From positions 1 to 48,601 of IMG/VR virus record IMGVR_UViG_3300037511_000156: a stretch of DNA of 48,601 nucleotides; one strand, given 5' to 3'. This DNA is from a virus. Shown here one piece after another: positions 2,028-29,282 of the stretch (positions are counted from its first letter, which is position 1; every line of letters begins with the position of its first letter). Below the pieces are notes generated by a model. The model ran no database searches, was not told the DNA's origin, and saw only the letters and a program-made list of their open reading frames with translations. Made by a program: the position numbers and the translations under genes.

Positions 2028-2246
2028 TCACCAAATTTTAATGTTTTCTGTCTTCCTGATCCAGGCGTCGGGCCAATAAAAAGAAATCATCACGATACCT
2101 GTTTCTTCGCAAAGAAAAGATTCAGCACCCATGAAGGTAGTCTGTGTATACATTTTACTGTGTATACTACTATACAGTGCTTCGGCCATGATCTCGCCGG
2201 CGAATATCAGGAGATACCGCTCGCCTTCTATGGGTTCGTTAGCCAT
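2028..2246 (-). CDS. Hypothetical protein
   Basis: 72-aa ORF tiling with the neighbouring same-strand ORFs. Confidence 0.5.
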   Translation of the reverse strand: MANEPIEGERYLLIFAGEIMAEALYSSIHSKMYTQTTFMGAESFLCEETGIVMISFYWPDAWIRKTENIKIW

Positions 2247-2560
2247 TTGTAGTCAGGTTTAATGGATAAGATCTTATCCATTAATGCATGATCTGATGGA
2301 TTTTCGGGATGTCGCCCGAATTCTTCGAAATAGCTTTTTGTTTCACGCGCCGATAAAACCTTTTGTCCTTTTTCCAGTGTCATGGATATTTCGCCGGATT
2401 TAAATGTCCCCTCTGCGAAATTAGGCCTTGGCTTAGCCTTCTCAATGGCTTCCATTGCGGCCCATAATACCAGGCTAATTACATCCCAGACATTATCAAA
2501 GAATTTCTGATCCGTAAATGGATCGACAGAATATCGGCTTCCGTTTTGAATTACAATCAT
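2228..2560 (-). CDS. Hypothetical protein
   Basis: 110-aa ORF with a short overlap onto the downstream ORF. Confidence 0.6.
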   Translation of the reverse strand: MIVIQNGSRYSVDPFTDQKFFDNVWDVISLVLWAAMEAIEKAKPRPNFAEGTFKSGEISMTLEKGQKVLSARETKSYFEEFGRHPENPSDHALMDKILSIKPDYKWLTNP

Positions 2561-2632
2561 AGTTTTTAAAGGTTAAGGCCCGACGGTTTGCCGGGCCTGG
2601 GGGCGGGTTTAGGATGGGCTGAGCGAATGTTT

Positions 2633-3156: not shown

Positions 3157-3454
3157 GGCCTAGTTTTTTATTATGAATATCCTGTAAAAACTCCCTTTTG
3201 TCGGCTATATCGCCGTATTCGATGTGGTGCTCCCGGCACAAGGCCATCAAATTCTCGATCACGTCCTTACCCTGTATTCCGCCCATCTTCCTACTGTGTA
3301 TGTGGTGTATGTCCACCGCTCGCGCGCCGCAGATCTCGCAGGGGATGAAATCGGATACGTCATATCCGAAATGCTGCATGTAAATGCGTGTGTGTGCTTT
3401 CAAGAGGTCCGTTTGGGGCTCGAACCCAAATACAGCCGCTGACGCAGCTTGCAT
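3140..3454 (-). CDS. HNH endonuclease (true start probably Met26 at 3379)
   Basis: CEICGARAVDIHHIHSRKMGG...ENLMALCREHH is an HNH motif. The first 25 codons of the listed ORF overlap a tRNA-like structure, so the 3379 start (MQHFGYDV...) is preferred. Confidence 0.8.
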   Translation of the reverse strand: MQAASAAVFGFEPQTDLLKAHTRIYMQHFGYDVSDFIPCEICGARAVDIHHIHSRKMGGIQGKDVIENLMALCREHHIEYGDIADKREFLQDIHNKKLGHVSKL

Positions 3455-3474
3455 GCCACTCTGCCACCGGACCT
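3405..3474 (-). ncRNA. Deviant tRNA-like element A (canonical acceptor, D and T arms; abnormal anticodon arm)
   Basis: Minus strand: AGGTCCG/CGGACCT is a 7-bp acceptor. It is followed by a 3-bp D stem, GCA-GAGTGGCA-TGC, whose loop contains GG. The T arm is TTGGG-TTCGAGC-CCCAA. The anticodon position holds AGCTGC-GTCA-GCGGCT (6 bp plus a tetraloop) instead of 5 bp plus 7 nt. Confidence 0.55.
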
Positions 3475-3581: not shown

Positions 3582-3932
3582 TTATTCCAAAAATACTTTT
3601 ATGACTCTGCCGTTTATATAGAAAGGCCCTCCGTCTGGCTGCGTTCCGAGGCCGCAAACCTGGTATTGGTCAAGGCATATGTTATCACCGCAGAAATAAC
3701 TACTTCGAGTAGCCCAATCGCTACAGCCCTGAACAAGCATAGGCGAAACTTCAGTGCCATTTTTAAGATCGATGTATTCCGGAGAAAATTCCCGGCCGGC
3801 ATGTTCGTATCTGGCTATTGCCTTTTGTAACCCTGACTCACTTAGTGTCTGCGAGCCTTCGGAAGAACTTTGCGCCTGCGCGCCTACCACAACAAACAAC
3901 CCCACAACGAGAGTTAAAATTAACGTTTTCAC
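3582..3932 (-). CDS. Secreted small protein (signal peptide, 4 Cys)
   Basis: GTG start. The N-terminus is MKTLILTLVVGLFVVVGAQA followed by polar residues. The mature part contains four cysteines. Confidence 0.65.
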   Translation of the reverse strand: MKTLILTLVVGLFVVVGAQAQSSSEGSQTLSESGLQKAIARYEHAGREFSPEYIDLKNGTEVSPMLVQGCSDWATRSSYFCGDNICLDQYQVCGLGTQPDGGPFYINGRVIKVFLE

Positions 3933-3981
3933 GATATTTCAGGCTACTTGTATTCCGCTGCCCGGCGGGTTATGGTTTAAA

Positions 3982-4128
3982 GATGCGAGGCAGGATTCAA
4001 TACCTGCACGCCGTCTATAGTTGGAAAAGGCTTTGATATTGGAGTTCCACATCTCCTGGGGCGGCGTCACTCTGCGGCTAGGCCTGTCTTACTTCTCCAA
4101 CTTTGCGTCTTATTCCGCCACTCGCATC
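3982..4128 (-). ncRNA. tRNA-like module E1 (147 nt)
   Basis: Minus strand, in order:
- 8-bp acceptor GATGCGAG/CTCGCATC, followed by U;
- D arm GCG-GAATAAGA-CGC, resembling a class II tRNA D arm;
- 9-bp helix TTGGAGAAG/CTTTTCCAA with one G.U, capping a 62-nt insert;
- T-like hairpin GCAGG-TATTGAAT-CCTGC. Confidence 0.65.
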
Positions 4129-4140
4129 TTATATCTTAAA

Positions 4141-4293
4141 GGCGCACGGCAGGATTCGATACCTGCATTATTTTTTCAGGTTTTAAGGCCTGGGGTAAAT
4201 AGAACCTTGCCTATTTATTGCTCTATACCACCCCCGGTACCTCTCCGGGTATTTTCGAAAACGGTGGTTGCCTCCTAATCGGCCACGTGCGCC
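4141..4293 (-). ncRNA. tRNA-like module E2 (153 nt), paralog of E1
   Basis: Minus strand, in order:
- 8-bp acceptor GGCGCACG/CGTGCGCC, followed by U;
- D arm GCC-GATTAGGA-GGC;
- helix ACCACC/GGTGGT;
- hairpins CCCGG-AGAGGTA-CCGGG and TAAATAG-GCAAGGTT-CTATTTA;
- T-like hairpin GCAGG-TATCGAAT-CCTGC.
Four acceptor pairs and one D-stem pair covary with E1. Confidence 0.65.
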
Positions 4294-4872
4294 ATTAATT
4301 TCAAATAAAAGGGCGCCTAACGTGTGGCCCATGCGGCATATCCAGGCATTCTAAGCGCTATTTCGGTACCTGTATTTGCTATCCCCGTAGTGCTTTTAGT
4401 TTCAAATTAACCCCCTGACAATCGCCAGGGGGTAAGCTTTCTTGTAAAGCGGACATCAGGTTCTTCGTATAGCCCCTGCAACACTTCCCGATCTCTTATG
4501 AGGTCCACCGGGTAGACCTCGCCGCTGCTTAGTATAGAGTGAACGCGCCCTCACTCACCCTTGCGCTCTGTAAATTGCCTTCGGTATCCAAGGGTATAGA
4601 GTTAAACCTGCCGGCATTCAGAAACCCGTCTTTCCGGTTGTCAACTACAGCCAATCTGTAGCACCTTCGCCTAACTTTATTTACCGGTAGCGCCACTCGG
4701 TATGCACTTAGTTACGTCACAAATGCACGAAATACGCCCTACGCTAACCCGGCAGGTATGGGGATGTTTCACATCTTTGCCATCTCTAACGCTCAGGCCG
4801 CGTTTCTCTGTCTTTCCAGAGTGTCGGCCTATCGGACTTAACGCGTACACGTTTAACCGTCTGGCATGGTCG
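4294..4872 (-). ncRNA. Central ORF-poor, hairpin-dense domain of the structured-RNA locus
   Basis: Many stems are perfect or contain G.U only on the minus strand. Examples:
- AGGCCG..CTCTG-GAAAGA-CAGAG..CGGCCT (about 4793-4830)
- GATGT-GAA-ACATC
- CTACAG-ATTGG-CTGTAG
- GAGTGA-GGGCGCGT-TCACTC (4537-4556)
- GAGGTC-TACCCGGTG-GACCTC (4500-4520)
- CCCCCTG-GCGATTGT-CAGGGGG (4411-4432)
There is also long-range AGGGCGC (4545-4551) / GCGCCCT (4310-4316) complementarity. Confidence 0.45.
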
Positions 4873-4949
4873 TGGAGATCCAGGGAATTGAACCCCGGCG
4901 GGAATTCGCTTTGCGGATTGCGAGGCAAAAACCTTTAACCTTAATCCCC
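4873..4949 (-). ncRNA. tRNA-like module D (77 nt) with a G3.U70 acceptor stem
   Basis: Minus strand, in order:
- acceptor GGGGATT/GATCTCC with G3.U70 and discriminator A;
- no D stem (AAGGTTAAAGGTT is unpaired);
- TTTGC-CTCGCAATCC-GCAAA (10-nt loop);
- GCG-AATTCC-CGC;
- T arm CGGGG-TTCAATT-CCCTG.
The sequence CGACCA follows the discriminator. Confidence 0.6.
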
Positions 4950-4953
4950 ATGT

Positions 4954-4980
4954 GCCCCGGCTATGTTCAGTAACCGGGGC
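4954..4980 (-). ncRNA. 7-bp GC hairpin immediately 5' of module D (part of the structured locus)
   Basis: GCCCCGG (4954-4960) pairs with CCGGGGC (4974-4980), with a 13-nt loop. Further stems with 15-16 nt loops lie at 5002-5028 (AAGCTA/TAGCTT) and 5033-5060 (CCGGAG/CTCCGG). A stem with a 6-nt loop lies at 5101-5116 (GGCCG/CGGCC). Confidence 0.45.
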
Positions 4981-5128
4981 GAACCTTTACATACTACAAG
5001 AAAGCTAGAACCGCCTGTCCTTTAGCTTAGCGCCGGAGAAGACCCTACATCAAACTCCGGCTGTAGCCGTTTATCGATGGCAAAACGCCGCATGCTTAAT
5101 GGCCGCGCGGACGGCCGGAACCCTACTA

Positions 5129-5275
5129 CTAAGATTCTATAAACTTTACGCCGTCTATTTCGACAGCGCTCAGTTTGCCTTCACGGATGAGTTTATAAAC
5201 CCACTCGCGACTCTTCTTTATCTTGTAACTGTAATTCGCAACAGTTAGCAAATTCTTTGTTTCTACCCTTGCCAT
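5129..5275 (-). CDS. Small HTH DNA-binding protein (excisionase/AlpA/MerR-like), 48 aa; below the ORF-track cutoff
   Basis: Manual translation: MARVETKNLLTVANYSYKIKKSREWVYKLIREGKLSAVEIDGVKFIES*. The pattern is typical of Xis-type winged HTH proteins. It is the first gene of the leftward unit. Confidence 0.55.
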   Translation of the reverse strand: MARVETKNLLTVANYSYKIKKSREWVYKLIREGKLSAVEIDGVKFIES

Positions 5276-5455
5276 TTACATGTGCTTTGCGTTTTTTGTT
5301 TCGCGTTAAAGTGATACAAACATAGTCCACAGATTCACACTATGCAAGTGATTCCCAAAAAATATTTTTTAGAATTTATTTTTCAAATATTTTTCAGTCA
5401 GGTATTGACAAGTTCACAGTTATGTATTTACTTTGTTTCATCAACAAAACGAAAT
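5276..5455. promoter_or_regulatory. Divergent AT-rich control region between the leftward and rightward units
   Basis: 180 nt without a credible ORF. TTGACA lies at 5405-5410, followed by TATTTACTTTG at 5425-5435, about 20 nt before the ATG at 5456. T/A runs lie at 5355-5400. Confidence 0.35.
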
Positions 5456-7371: not shown

Positions 7372-7781
7372 CACAATTTAAACACACACCAGGACCTTGG
7401 AGATGGGAGTTGAATAAGCGTGGTAAGGGTATAACACTTTGTGGCGGCCAGCGTAGATTTGATAACTTCGTTATGTCTTTTTCACGTTGGGGTATGGGTG
7501 GCGCCACACCCAATTTCCGTGTACCTCTTAAAGATGATGATTCCTGCGGAATAATGGAAAAGGCGCACACAATGGGCGTAATTGTTAAAGGTCGGGAACA
7601 TCATCAGGATTGGTTTATGGATATCAACCATCCAGATGCTAAATTGATAGCCGCAGCGCCTGATCTTTTGGAAGCATGCATATCAGCCTTAAGCGTCGGA
7701 GAAATTCAATTTGAGTCTTGCGCTTTAAGCAGAGATGTTAAAAATAAATTACAGAAGGCCATTAAAAAAGCTACCGAATGA
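7368..7781 (+). CDS. Hypothetical protein
   Basis: 137-aa ORF with a 4-nt overlap onto its neighbours. Contains HTPGPW...AKLIAAAPDLLEAC. Confidence 0.65.
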   Translation: MTQFKHTPGPWRWELNKRGKGITLCGGQRRFDNFVMSFSRWGMGGATPNFRVPLKDDDSCGIMEKAHTMGVIVKGREHHQDWFMDINHPDAKLIAAAPDLLEACISALSVGEIQFESCALSRDVKNKLQKAIKKATE

Positions 7782-7981
7782 ACATAACATGTTTCAATGC
7801 ACCATCTGCTAGAGTAGAGATCTTACGTGGGAATAAAGCCGGTGTACGCGGATCTATAGAAGGTATTGAGTATGACCGTGAAGGTAGGATAAAGTTCTGG
7901 CTAGTGAGTCCTGATAATAATGGGCCTCGTATAGCCGTTAAGTTCGGAAACACAAAAAGGATTTGGGGGCGAAAACCATGA
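7778..7981 (+). CDS. Hypothetical protein
   Basis: 67-aa ORF with overlapping start and stop. Confidence 0.55.
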   Translation: MNITCFNAPSARVEILRGNKAGVRGSIEGIEYDREGRIKFWLVSPDNNGPRIAVKFGNTKRIWGRKP

Positions 7982-28364: not shown

Positions 28365-29282
28365 TTAAACAACCGCCGTAGACCGGCCTTGCCGCGGTGC
28401 GGTGCCAGTGTCGTTTGTTGGATATGTACGAGTGGTTGTGGTCTGGGTACCATTGTGGGGCGCGCCAGCATTTGATTGCTTTAGGTAGGGCTTAAAAGCC
28501 TCTTCCAGTAAAGAATCGATGGTAACTGGAGTGTTACCGTTAAATCTCGGTGTTGGATTTCCGTCCGCGCCGATAGAAAATACCTGCACGTCTTCTTTCC
28601 CATTGTTTTCTACGAGCTGTAGGATGTTGCTACCCTTCAATTCGCTTAATTTAGCTTTTGTAAGCACTCCTCGGACATCATCCTTATCGAAGTGCTCAGC
28701 AAATGTAAATTTATTTGCCCGCTTTTCCAACTCGCTTTCCAGGCGGAAGTTTTTGTACTTCTGGTCGTACTCACTGGCAATAGTCTTTTCCTTGGTTTTG
28801 TATTCATTTTCCACTTTTGTGAACTTCTCCATGAGCTCGGCGATACTTTGCTCCTTGGCCGCGAGTTGTTTTTTCAATTCCTCGTCGCTCGTGGAAATTT
28901 TCGTTTTCTTTTCGATGATTTTGGGAATTACGTCCCGTAGCGCCTCCAATGTCTTGTATGTATCGGCGACCACTTGACCGCTGGCTGTTGTGCGGGTAAG
29001 TTTTGAAAGCTCAATGGCGGTGTGAGGATCTATTTTATCGATAAGCTCAATCAATCCCTGAACGCGTTCCTCAACCGGGTTTAATATCTGGAATCTCAGT
29101 TTTTTGTTGACATCCGGGTGCGCTATGGCGCGATCCATGGTCATGAAATTGTTTTCGAATTCGGGTACAAGTTCATCGGGGAACTCGCCGTCAGGCAGCG
29201 ATGCGATAAACTTATCGAAATCCGCATTATTGATTTTCGCCTTATCTTTGATAACGCGCGTAAAAAAATCTTGTAGCTTCAT
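28365..29282 (-). CDS. Scaffolding protein candidate
   Basis: 305 aa, K/E-rich and predicted helical. It lies between the head-morphogenesis gene and the capsid candidate. Confidence 0.5.
   Translation of the reverse strand: MKLQDFFTRVIKDKAKINNADFDKFIASLPDGEFPDELVPEFENNFMTMDRAIAHPDVNKKLRFQILNPVEERVQGLIELIDKIDPHTAIELSKLTRTTASGQVVADTYKTLEALRDVIPKIIEKKTKISTSDEELKKQLAAKEQSIAELMEKFTKVENEYKTKEKTIASEYDQKYKNFRLESELEKRANKFTFAEHFDKDDVRGVLTKAKLSELKGSNILQLVENNGKEDVQVFSIGADGNPTPRFNGNTPVTIDSLLEEAFKPYLKQSNAGAPHNGTQTTTTRTYPTNDTGTAPRQGRSTAVV

Follow-up and report, generated by a model that had tools for sequence, protein, structure and literature searches.

What sort of gene combines an intact, alanine-type tRNA top half with a lower half that standard detectors do not recognise? 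The question is raised by a 77-nucleotide (nt) element on the minus strand (4873-4949) of the IMG/VR virus record IMGVR_UViG_3300037511_000156; the whole analysed stretch of this record, positions 1 to 48,601, is called the window here. The original prediction for this locus described a tRNA-like module with an alanine-type acceptor and held that it is neither a transfer-messenger RNA (tmRNA) nor a canonical decoding tRNA. The observation behind that prediction is confirmed, and its interpretation is partly supported. We give a probability of about 0.5 to the explanation that the element is a non-decoding RNA of tRNA-like form, derived from tRNA-Ala, whose top half still allows processing and possibly alanylation. 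In other words, it is probably an aberrant phage tRNA-like gene, unusual but of an ordinary kind, and not a new machine. This explanation is built on the anatomy, genomic position, covariance-model scores and alanine-type features of the element; its transcription, processing and charging, and its failure to decode, are predicted from these.

With G1 at 4949 and the discriminator A at 4873, an element position p corresponds to window coordinate 4950-p. The 5' strand of the acceptor stem, GGGGAUU (4943-4949), forms seven of seven pairs with 4880-4874, and the third of these is a G.U pair (G3.U70); the 3' strand, GAUCUCC, and the discriminator A that follows it (A73, A4873) together occupy 4873-4880. 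The T arm, CGGGG-UUCAAUU-CCCUG (4881-4897), has a stem of 5 base pairs (bp) including one G.U pair, a 7-nt loop, and the G53-C61 pair. Both structures lie where the original prediction had drawn them, and the T arm is aligned with high posterior probability by three covariance models. One is the Rfam tmRNA model (RF00023). The others are our own: R1, a tRNA model built from 36 class-I tRNAs of two unrelated phages, and R2, built from 23 tag-less phage RNAs that consist of the tRNA-like domain only (TLD-only RNAs, of the type found in phage DS6A).

A strict scanner, which demands 7/7 acceptor pairs, 5/5 T-stem pairs, G53-C61 and a tRNA-type 7-nt T loop, returned a sole match in the two strands of the window, the element; in 19 related loci it gave one further match, a genuine tRNA-Val. 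For the background we simulated 400 windows with a first-order Markov chain that uses the window's own base transition frequencies, and the mean number of matches per simulated window was 0.0175 when a UUCRANN loop was required and 0.12 when the loop was relaxed. Because the element is the only strict match, because such matches are rare in the simulations, and because the Rfam tmRNA model finds it with E = 9.4e-6, chance does not explain the tRNA-shaped top half.

The lower half is a different matter. Only 45 nt separate the acceptor 5' strand from the T arm. They begin with a 13-nt linker, AAGGUUAAAGGUU (4930-4942), which contains two GG doublets and for which both R1 and folding yield an unconvincing D stem. 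R1 forces GGUU/UUGC with non-standard pairs; a cloverleaf drawn by ARAGORN uses GU.A/U.GC after a 3-nt linker; and a third option, AGGU/GCCU, follows a 1-nt linker and destroys the anticodon hairpin. The original statement that no D stem is possible holds within the fold in which it was made (-20.8 kcal/mol) and fails for the fold with the 4-bp AGGU/GCCU stem, which reaches -20.2 kcal/mol. The ARAGORN cloverleaf stands at -15.3 and the minimum free energy (MFE) structure at -24.5 kcal/mol. After the linker comes the hairpin UUUGC-(CUCGCAAUCC)-GCAAA (4910-4929), with a 10-nt loop; the sequence and the folding energies suggest that it is likely the homologue of the anticodon arm, and R1 and R2 alike bypass its region as a local insertion. 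A small hairpin, GCG-AAUUCC-CGC (4898-4909), occupies the variable-arm position and is retained in the constrained MFE structure. Both hairpins had been correctly located before. The variable region comprises 8-12 nt, and the anticodon loop, instead of the usual 7 nt, has 10 nt if the stem is of 5 bp, or 8 nt if the stem consists of four pairs plus an A.A pair. The folding energy of the whole element is unexceptional (z = -0.48); because the validated DS6A element itself scores only -0.72, such z-scores are uninformative for the element, either way.

Three independent signals point to alanine. One is the combination of G3.U70 and A73. Another is the heptamer CUCGCAA (4918-4924), directly after the 5' strand of the 5-bp stem, which can be read as C32, U33, CGC, A37 and A38, that is, as an anticodon loop of canonical form and length (7 nt) bearing the alanine anticodon CGC. 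The three bases that follow it, UCC (4917-4915), account for the 10-nt loop as the heptamer plus three. By our own calculation, a Y-U-NGC-R-N heptamer in this register is expected by chance at about 1/256. The original prediction was right that the loop is not a 7-nt loop, and it overlooked the heptamer. The third signal comes from blastn: for query positions 58-81, from the T loop to the acceptor 3' strand minus its last base, the best short matches fall in annotated phage tRNA-Ala genes (24 nt, 92-96% identity). Since the heptamer would have no reason to exist in a tmRNA-derived element, and since the 3' part is closest to phage tRNA-Ala, the element is most simply read as a rearranged derivative of a tRNA-Ala(CGC) gene. 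A codon-supply rationale for such a gene was considered and rejected, because GCG makes up 22% of the alanine codons of the window, an unremarkable usage.

How do established detectors treat the element? ARAGORN makes no call there at its default and 90% thresholds, with or without introns and in mitochondrial and tmRNA modes. At 85% it draws the cloverleaf mentioned above, labelled tRNA-?(Arg|Ala), in which the D stem is mismatched, the anticodon loop has 8 nt (anticodon CCGC) and one pair is A.A; at this threshold it also makes three evident false calls in the window. A permuted or two-piece tmRNA was rejected, as ARAGORN at 70% yields only junk. Rfam at its gathering thresholds reports nothing in the whole window; under relaxed conditions tmRNA is the best family, at 21.1 bits against a gathering score of 47 (the E-value given above refers to a 4-kb search), and the alignment is confined to the T arm and the two strands of the acceptor. 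Of the checks proposed with the original prediction, ARAGORN in tmRNA and permuted modes and covariance models have been run, and no standard tool calls a canonical tRNA or tmRNA. The claim that the element is not a tmRNA is borne out by this score, by the absence of a tag reading frame and by the 45-nt interior. Likewise, the claim that it is not a canonical decoding tRNA agrees with the missing calls and with R1, which gives it 18.8 bits (E = 0.002, with the anticodon arm skipped).

For comparison, the background in R1 is at most 11 bits, and independent phage tRNAs score 44-77 bits, their tRNA-Ala genes 44-67. R2 gives the element 29.0 bits (E = 4e-4), with the high-confidence alignment limited to the acceptor stem and T arm. 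Ordinary tRNA-Ala genes obtain 25-44 bits in R2 from their alanine-type top half alone, DS6A obtains 48, independent TLD-only members 51-78, and all members including the training set 45-78; conversely, TLD-only members score 17-32 bits in R1. The element is above background in all three covariance models, and by the scores of R1 and R2 it belongs neither to the tRNAs nor to the TLD-only RNAs. The suggestion that its linker is reminiscent of the D-loop analogue of tmRNA did not survive this comparison: the linker mismatches the analogue, and the R2 score is at the tRNA-Ala level.

The genomic position of the element provides a further line of evidence, which comes from a related phage type present in JGI sample 3300027119 and in an ENA soil metagenome (loci L001, which equals L156, and L157). 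This is the only related phage type found with this RNA island; its RecT is 99% identical to that of the window, but the region around the island is mosaic. In the window, the minus-strand element is surrounded by about 1.2 kb that are free of ORFs (open reading frames). The gene calls of three independent assemblies contain no gene in this stretch, and a search of 5.8 billion proteins gave no homologue of a 78-residue ORF that overlaps the element. Directly before the element stands a 7-bp GC hairpin, GCCCCGG/CCGGGGC (4954-4980, minus), which ends 4 nt (ACAU, 4953-4950) before G1. The original prediction had noted this hairpin, and a homologous one precedes tRNA-Met in L001: all seven pairs survive, through a compensatory double change from C-G to U-A and two changes from G-C to G.U, and the ACAUG that follows is identical. 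In L001 the same leader is followed by a hairpin, ACAC and tRNA-Val, and then by a hairpin, ACAU and tRNA-Met, both tRNAs being canonical (60.2 and 51.5 bits in R1, respectively). The element starts at exactly the place where tRNA-Met starts in L001, and the tRNA-Val slot of the window is empty.

A GC-rich hairpin plus exactly 4 nt (ACAC or ACAU) is found before each tRNA or tRNA-like gene of the island; these hairpins lie at 5032-5061 and 4954-4980 in the window (minus) and at 7538-7569 and about 7385-7415 in L001. The first hairpin of the window (5032-5061) is retained despite the loss of tRNA-Val. Such a hairpin with its 4 nt may be a 3'-end stabiliser left by RNase P cleavage. On the other side of the element, the 3' trailer reads CGACCA (4867-4872), so that the discriminator has no CCA directly after it. 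It had been proposed that the acceptor helix extends by three more pairs (CAU/ACG), which would place an encoded ACCA at 4870-4867. The pairing is indeed possible, with one A.C mismatch, but the encoded ACCA is probably coincidental, because canonical tRNAs of L001 have the same leader (ACAUG, tRNA-Met) and the same trailer (CGA, tRNA-Val); a 10-bp acceptor helix with an encoded ACCA was rejected on the same grounds. The CGA trailer also occurs in eight of the 51 phage TLD-only elements listed below.

The window holds a second gene of this sort, upstream of an HNH ORF at 3402-3473 (minus). It is the only default call of ARAGORN in the window ('tRNA-?(Asp|SeC)(tc)', 3404-3473), with a good acceptor stem and T arm, a 6-nt anticodon loop and 23.4 bits in R1. 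At its place L001 has a hairpin that by eye resembles an acceptor-T minihelix, and in locus L147 this second gene is absent. Two genes of the same operon, in other words, have the top half intact and the decoding half damaged. The shared pattern is suggestive of selection on the top half; as it involves few events, it is statistically not compelling.

These observations can be assembled into the following picture. A derivative of tRNA-Ala(CGC) would fill the tRNA slot of a non-coding RNA island at the start of a leftward operon, and it would be co-transcribed with the upstream gene for a 48-residue helix-turn-helix (HTH) protein. Its top half would have been retained (the 7-bp acceptor with G3.U70 and A73, the 5-bp T stem and the UUCAAUU loop), while the lower half would have been rearranged, with the D arm gone or very weak, the anticodon loop enlarged to 10 (or 8) nt and the variable region expanded. 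Because the element sits where the tRNAs of the relative sit, behind the same hairpin plus 4 nt, we infer processing by RNase P, with a cut between U4950 and G4949, 4 nt past the conserved hairpin, that would leave the upstream RNA with a 3' hairpin. Host enzymes would then trim the trailer beginning with CGA and add CCA, and the resulting acceptor-T minihelix would be a plausible substrate of alanyl-tRNA synthetase (AlaRS). The body, by contrast, would be unable to present the anticodon in normal geometry, and the RNA would most likely be non-decoding. Its retained role, if any, may be that of a cleavable, tRNA-shaped punctuation mark or of a small alanine-accepting RNA.

Several points weigh against this picture. 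No dominant fold emerges for the middle 45 nt, where several weak folds compete. That the RNA is transcribed, cut by RNase P, given a CCA end and alanylated is predicted from sequence, and the sub-threshold ARAGORN cloverleaf with its 8-nt loop leaves room for a decoding role. In addition, every other copy retrieved is 100% identical, so that conservation and covariation provide no evidence. Exact and gapped DNA patterns of the element found no diverged copy in IMG/VR, JGI metagenomes or GTDB genomes, and a 14-mer from the loop gave only random matches (L022-L140). Queries with the neighbouring 244-nt block led to the L001 contig only, and those with the RecT variant to L001-type contigs only. 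Loci with relatives of the flanking 116-residue protein were absent from GTDB genomes and limited in IMG/VR to the L001 contig; homologues of the 48-residue HTH protein were located in other contexts; and searches with homologues of the 116-residue protein and with variants of a 111-residue ORF gave only 100%-identical copies, short contigs and unrelated contexts. One contig of 2,759 bp, from JGI sample 3300045391, encodes a variant of the 116-residue protein with 95% identity and, judged by its layout, should extend across the element.

The main rival is a decaying tRNA-Ala(CGC) pseudogene, which we consider unlikely but a serious competitor. According to this view, insertions and deletions have accumulated in the D, anticodon and variable regions of a gene without selected function, and the intact top half reflects luck or recent origin. 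Neutral decay is compatible with the roughly three to five such events, all in the middle; we estimate at about 0.07-0.2 the probability that all of them would miss the top half by chance. The R1 score far below that of real tRNAs, the middle region without a dominant fold, the ordinary frequency of GCG and the defective anticodon loop of the second gene also fit decay, as does the fast turnover of tRNA slots in the island, where the window has lost tRNA-Val and a minihelix-like hairpin replaces the second gene in L001. Against decay stand the 12 of 12 top-half pairs, the T-loop consensus, G3.U70 and A73, all of them intact while every lesion lies in the lower half, and the repetition of this pattern at 3402-3473. 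Moreover, dead sequence rarely persists for long in phage genomes. Scarcely credible, in our view, is that there is no RNA gene here at all, the resemblance being due to chance or to an attachment-site core that duplicates the 3' end of a tRNA-Ala or tmRNA gene of the host. Phages often integrate at the 3' ends of tRNA and tmRNA genes and carry the matching segment, as Ms6 does, and the rate of the strict pattern in simulated windows is low but not zero. Yet both acceptor strands are present, not the 3' part alone; the strand of the element is the transcribed one, its distance from a conserved hairpin is exactly that of a tRNA in the relative, and it includes an alanine anticodon heptamer. An attachment-site core was rejected, as no integrase was found among the window ORFs scanned and none of 185,579 species genomes contains an exact match to the 24-nt segment from the T arm (minus its first stem base) to the discriminator.

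Two rivals give the element a defined role. It could be a tag-less TLD-only mini-tmRNA like that of DS6A, an anticodon-less alanine-type domain that binds SmpB and/or enters stalled ribosomes, or titrates SmpB against the trans-translation of the host; we hold this to be improbable. Its length and general layout resemble the 80-nt DS6A element, the best Rfam family is tmRNA, the E-value in R2 is 4e-4, and such elements are common in viral contigs, sometimes within tRNA clusters. There is also a report of a TLD-only RNA that inhibits tmRNA (PMC4131195, PMC11915505). However, 29.0 bits in R2 fall within the range of ordinary tRNA-Ala genes and below that of members, the D-loop analogue of the GGUUUCGAC type and the GGAC before the T arm are missing, there is no single stable H2 hairpin of the kind seen in all members folded, and the in-register alanine anticodon loop indicates tRNA rather than tmRNA ancestry. 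With the score, the motifs and H2 all at variance, membership of the TLD-only family was rejected. Very improbable is a decoding tRNA-Ala with a non-canonical core, either D-armless or with an 8-nt loop whose CCGC reads GCG or the quadruplet GCGG (+1 frameshift). The 85% cloverleaf does supply U33, a four-base anticodon CCGC and A37, and the alanine identity elements are present. Natural 8-nt anticodon loops are known, for example that of the yeast mitochondrial tRNA-Thr(UAG) (PMC7609411). On the other hand, the threshold that yields this cloverleaf also yields the three evident false calls, its fold is the least stable of those tested, and to draw it one has to accept U.U pairing in the D stem, an anticodon stem closed by A.A, a linker of 3 nt and a variable loop of 8 nt. 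GCG usage gives no reason for such a tRNA, and quadruplet decoding was rejected because the genome has no in-frame GCG-G site joining two long open frames. A bolder proposal, which we regard as improbable, takes the element and the gene at 3402-3473 together as selected, non-decoding but aminoacylatable tRNA mimics, neither tRNA nor TLD-only, that accept alanine and act against host translation or its quality control (AlaRS, EF-Tu, SmpB or a tRNA-targeting defence), or else sees in the element a tRNA-Ala that reads quadruplets.

If the element is only a relic of tRNA-Ala, its importance is minor: it shows the fast turnover of phage tRNA slots and the failure of detectors to report such genes. 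If its top half is selected, it would be a second independent case, after the DS6A type, of phages that keep alanine-type tRNA tops without decoding. Taken with the apparent abundance of TLD-only RNAs described next, such a case would suggest that phages repeatedly evolve alanine-accepting, non-decoding mimics, with SmpB, AlaRS, EF-Tu and RNase P as possible targets.

A by-product from outside the window is of greater interest, namely the apparent abundance of TLD-only mini-tmRNAs. To our knowledge, DS6A is the only phage example mentioned in the TLD-only literature that we reached. We located its element at 28478-28557 (+) of locus L158 (80 nt; Rfam tmRNA 43.2 bits, in an alignment that takes in helix H2 and the D-loop analogue). 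A scan of IMG/VR for over-long alanine-type tRNA-like genes then found at least 51 distinct elements of 75-79 nt without an ARAGORN tRNA call, most of them clearly DS6A-like, and 11 of the 51 listed lie within 1 kb of tRNA genes. The R2 search gave 48 matches of at least 44.8 bits in 100 loci, and helix H2 of these elements is rich in covariation. Examples from loci L162-L280 are L176:7634-7712(-), L231:1927-2005(+) and L173:3031-3107(+). Judged by these sequence matches, tag-less TLD-only mini-tmRNAs appear to be common in viral contigs.

The survey also brought up other unusual RNAs. Locus L014, a viral contig whose RecT is distantly related to that of the window, has a permuted (two-piece) tmRNA according to ARAGORN at 2159-2565 (-), with the tag GTQINVDFAAGRKLAA ending in a stop. 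ARAGORN further reports tRNAs with an alanine-type acceptor and odd anticodons at L190:331-406(-) and L245:9189-9267(+) and in L169/L236, L269 and L210. Their anticodons have four bases (GCUA, CAAG) or belong to other amino acids (ACU/UGA 'Ser', AUG 'His'), and those checked reach about 50 bits or higher in the tRNA model. It is possible that these are natural recoding or suppressor tRNAs.

As for the surroundings of the element, the leftward transcription unit starts with the ORF of the 48-residue HTH protein (5129-5275, minus), which has a weak HTH_17 match and a syntenic ORF in L001. Upstream of it lies a candidate -7 promoter element, TAtgTTTG (5317-5324, minus); the L001 equivalent is TAcaTTTG (about 7826-7833, minus). 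Both phage types match TAnnTTTG, which we take to be the -7 promoter consensus of Bacteroidota, and this suggests a Bacteroidota host. Downstream of the element, a 116-residue ORF with a signal peptide (3582-3932, minus) follows, past which the long leftward operon continues. Between the two, window positions 4400-4643 (minus) form a 244-nt block that is 96.7% identical to L001 7016-7258, with flanks that are mosaic or about 75-85% identical. A high degree of structure is predicted for the block, which shows one compensatory change from G-C to U-A and has a terminator-like hairpin at its end, and it matches no Rfam family; on these structural predictions it is likely a non-coding RNA of no known family. 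The roughly 230 nt between the element and this block (4644-4872, minus) have no L001 counterpart, ORF or Rfam match. At 3980-4140 (minus) there is a sub-threshold match to the manA RNA motif (25.9 bits against a gathering score of 55.2). Repeated T-arm-like hairpins GCAGGUAUYGAAUCCUGC and a repeated UUUAAGAUAUAAGAUGCGAGUGGCGGAA occur near 4149-4166 and 3990-4007, and pieces like these repeats are also found in L001 and L148. The manA RNAs are known mainly from marine metagenome sequences and T4-like cyanophages.

At about 48.6 kb, the window itself represents a whole phage genome or nearly all of one. Its ORFs include RecT, a DnaB-like helicase, a DNA methylase, an amidase, a portal protein, tail proteins and an HNH nuclease. 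GenBank phages contain no DNA match to it. Logan assemblies of four sequencing runs contain 1-3 kb stretches that span the element and are 100% identical, and five JGI contigs of up to 48,649 bp share many exact window proteins. The source is a soil phage, and relatives of it come from soil as well (the ENA soil metagenome, L157).

How does the element compare with known systems? It is similar to the DS6A family in its general build: these RNAs are phage-encoded, 75-83 nt long, and have an alanine-type acceptor, a canonical T arm and no usable anticodon. Their trailers often begin with C (CGA, CUA, CAA) and encode no CCA, and the trailer of the element begins with CGA. In contrast to the family, the element has neither the conserved D-loop analogue A.UGGUUUCGAC nor GGAC on the 5' side of the T arm; at the places of these motifs it has AAGGUUAAAGG and CCCGC, of which only the GG of the linker and the C beside the T stem match. 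Where the family has a single stable H2 hairpin of 8-11 bp with an inner UAAARCC mini-hairpin, the element has two or three mini-hairpins of 2-4 bp, and it carries an anticodon-loop remnant that DS6A-family elements do not have. Among tRNAs with enlarged loops, such as frameshift suppressors and the yeast mitochondrial tRNA-Thr(UAG), the 8-nt loop, U33 and purine 37 recur in the sub-threshold fold of the element; their cloverleaf is otherwise normal, whereas in the element the D arm is also defective, the anticodon stem mismatched and the variable region odd.

Another comparison is with tRNA-shaped modules that serve as processing signals within longer transcripts, namely the t-elements of plant mitochondria, the mascRNA of MALAT1 and the stable RNAs of the phage T4 tRNA cluster. 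This comparison leans in part on PMC1920247. Modules of the t-element type are excised by RNase P and 3' enzymes and thereby set the ends of their neighbours; these known cases have mapped RNA ends, whereas the processing of the element is deduced from its DNA. Its position at an RNA junction would fit such a role. The closest comparison, finally, is with phage tRNA-Ala genes, for example the tRNA-Ala(UGC) of Felixounavirus EcoM2 and that of Streptomyces phage WRightOn. The element departs from them in having no proper D arm, an anticodon loop of 10 (or 8) nt instead of 7, a variable region of 8-12 nt instead of 4-5, and a lower R1 score (18.8 against 44-67 bits). Like them, it has an acceptor beginning with GGGG, G3.U70 and A73, a UUCAAUU T loop and a 3' end in AUCUCCA, and like them it occupies a phage tRNA slot and carries an alanine anticodon in a YU-NNN-RA context.

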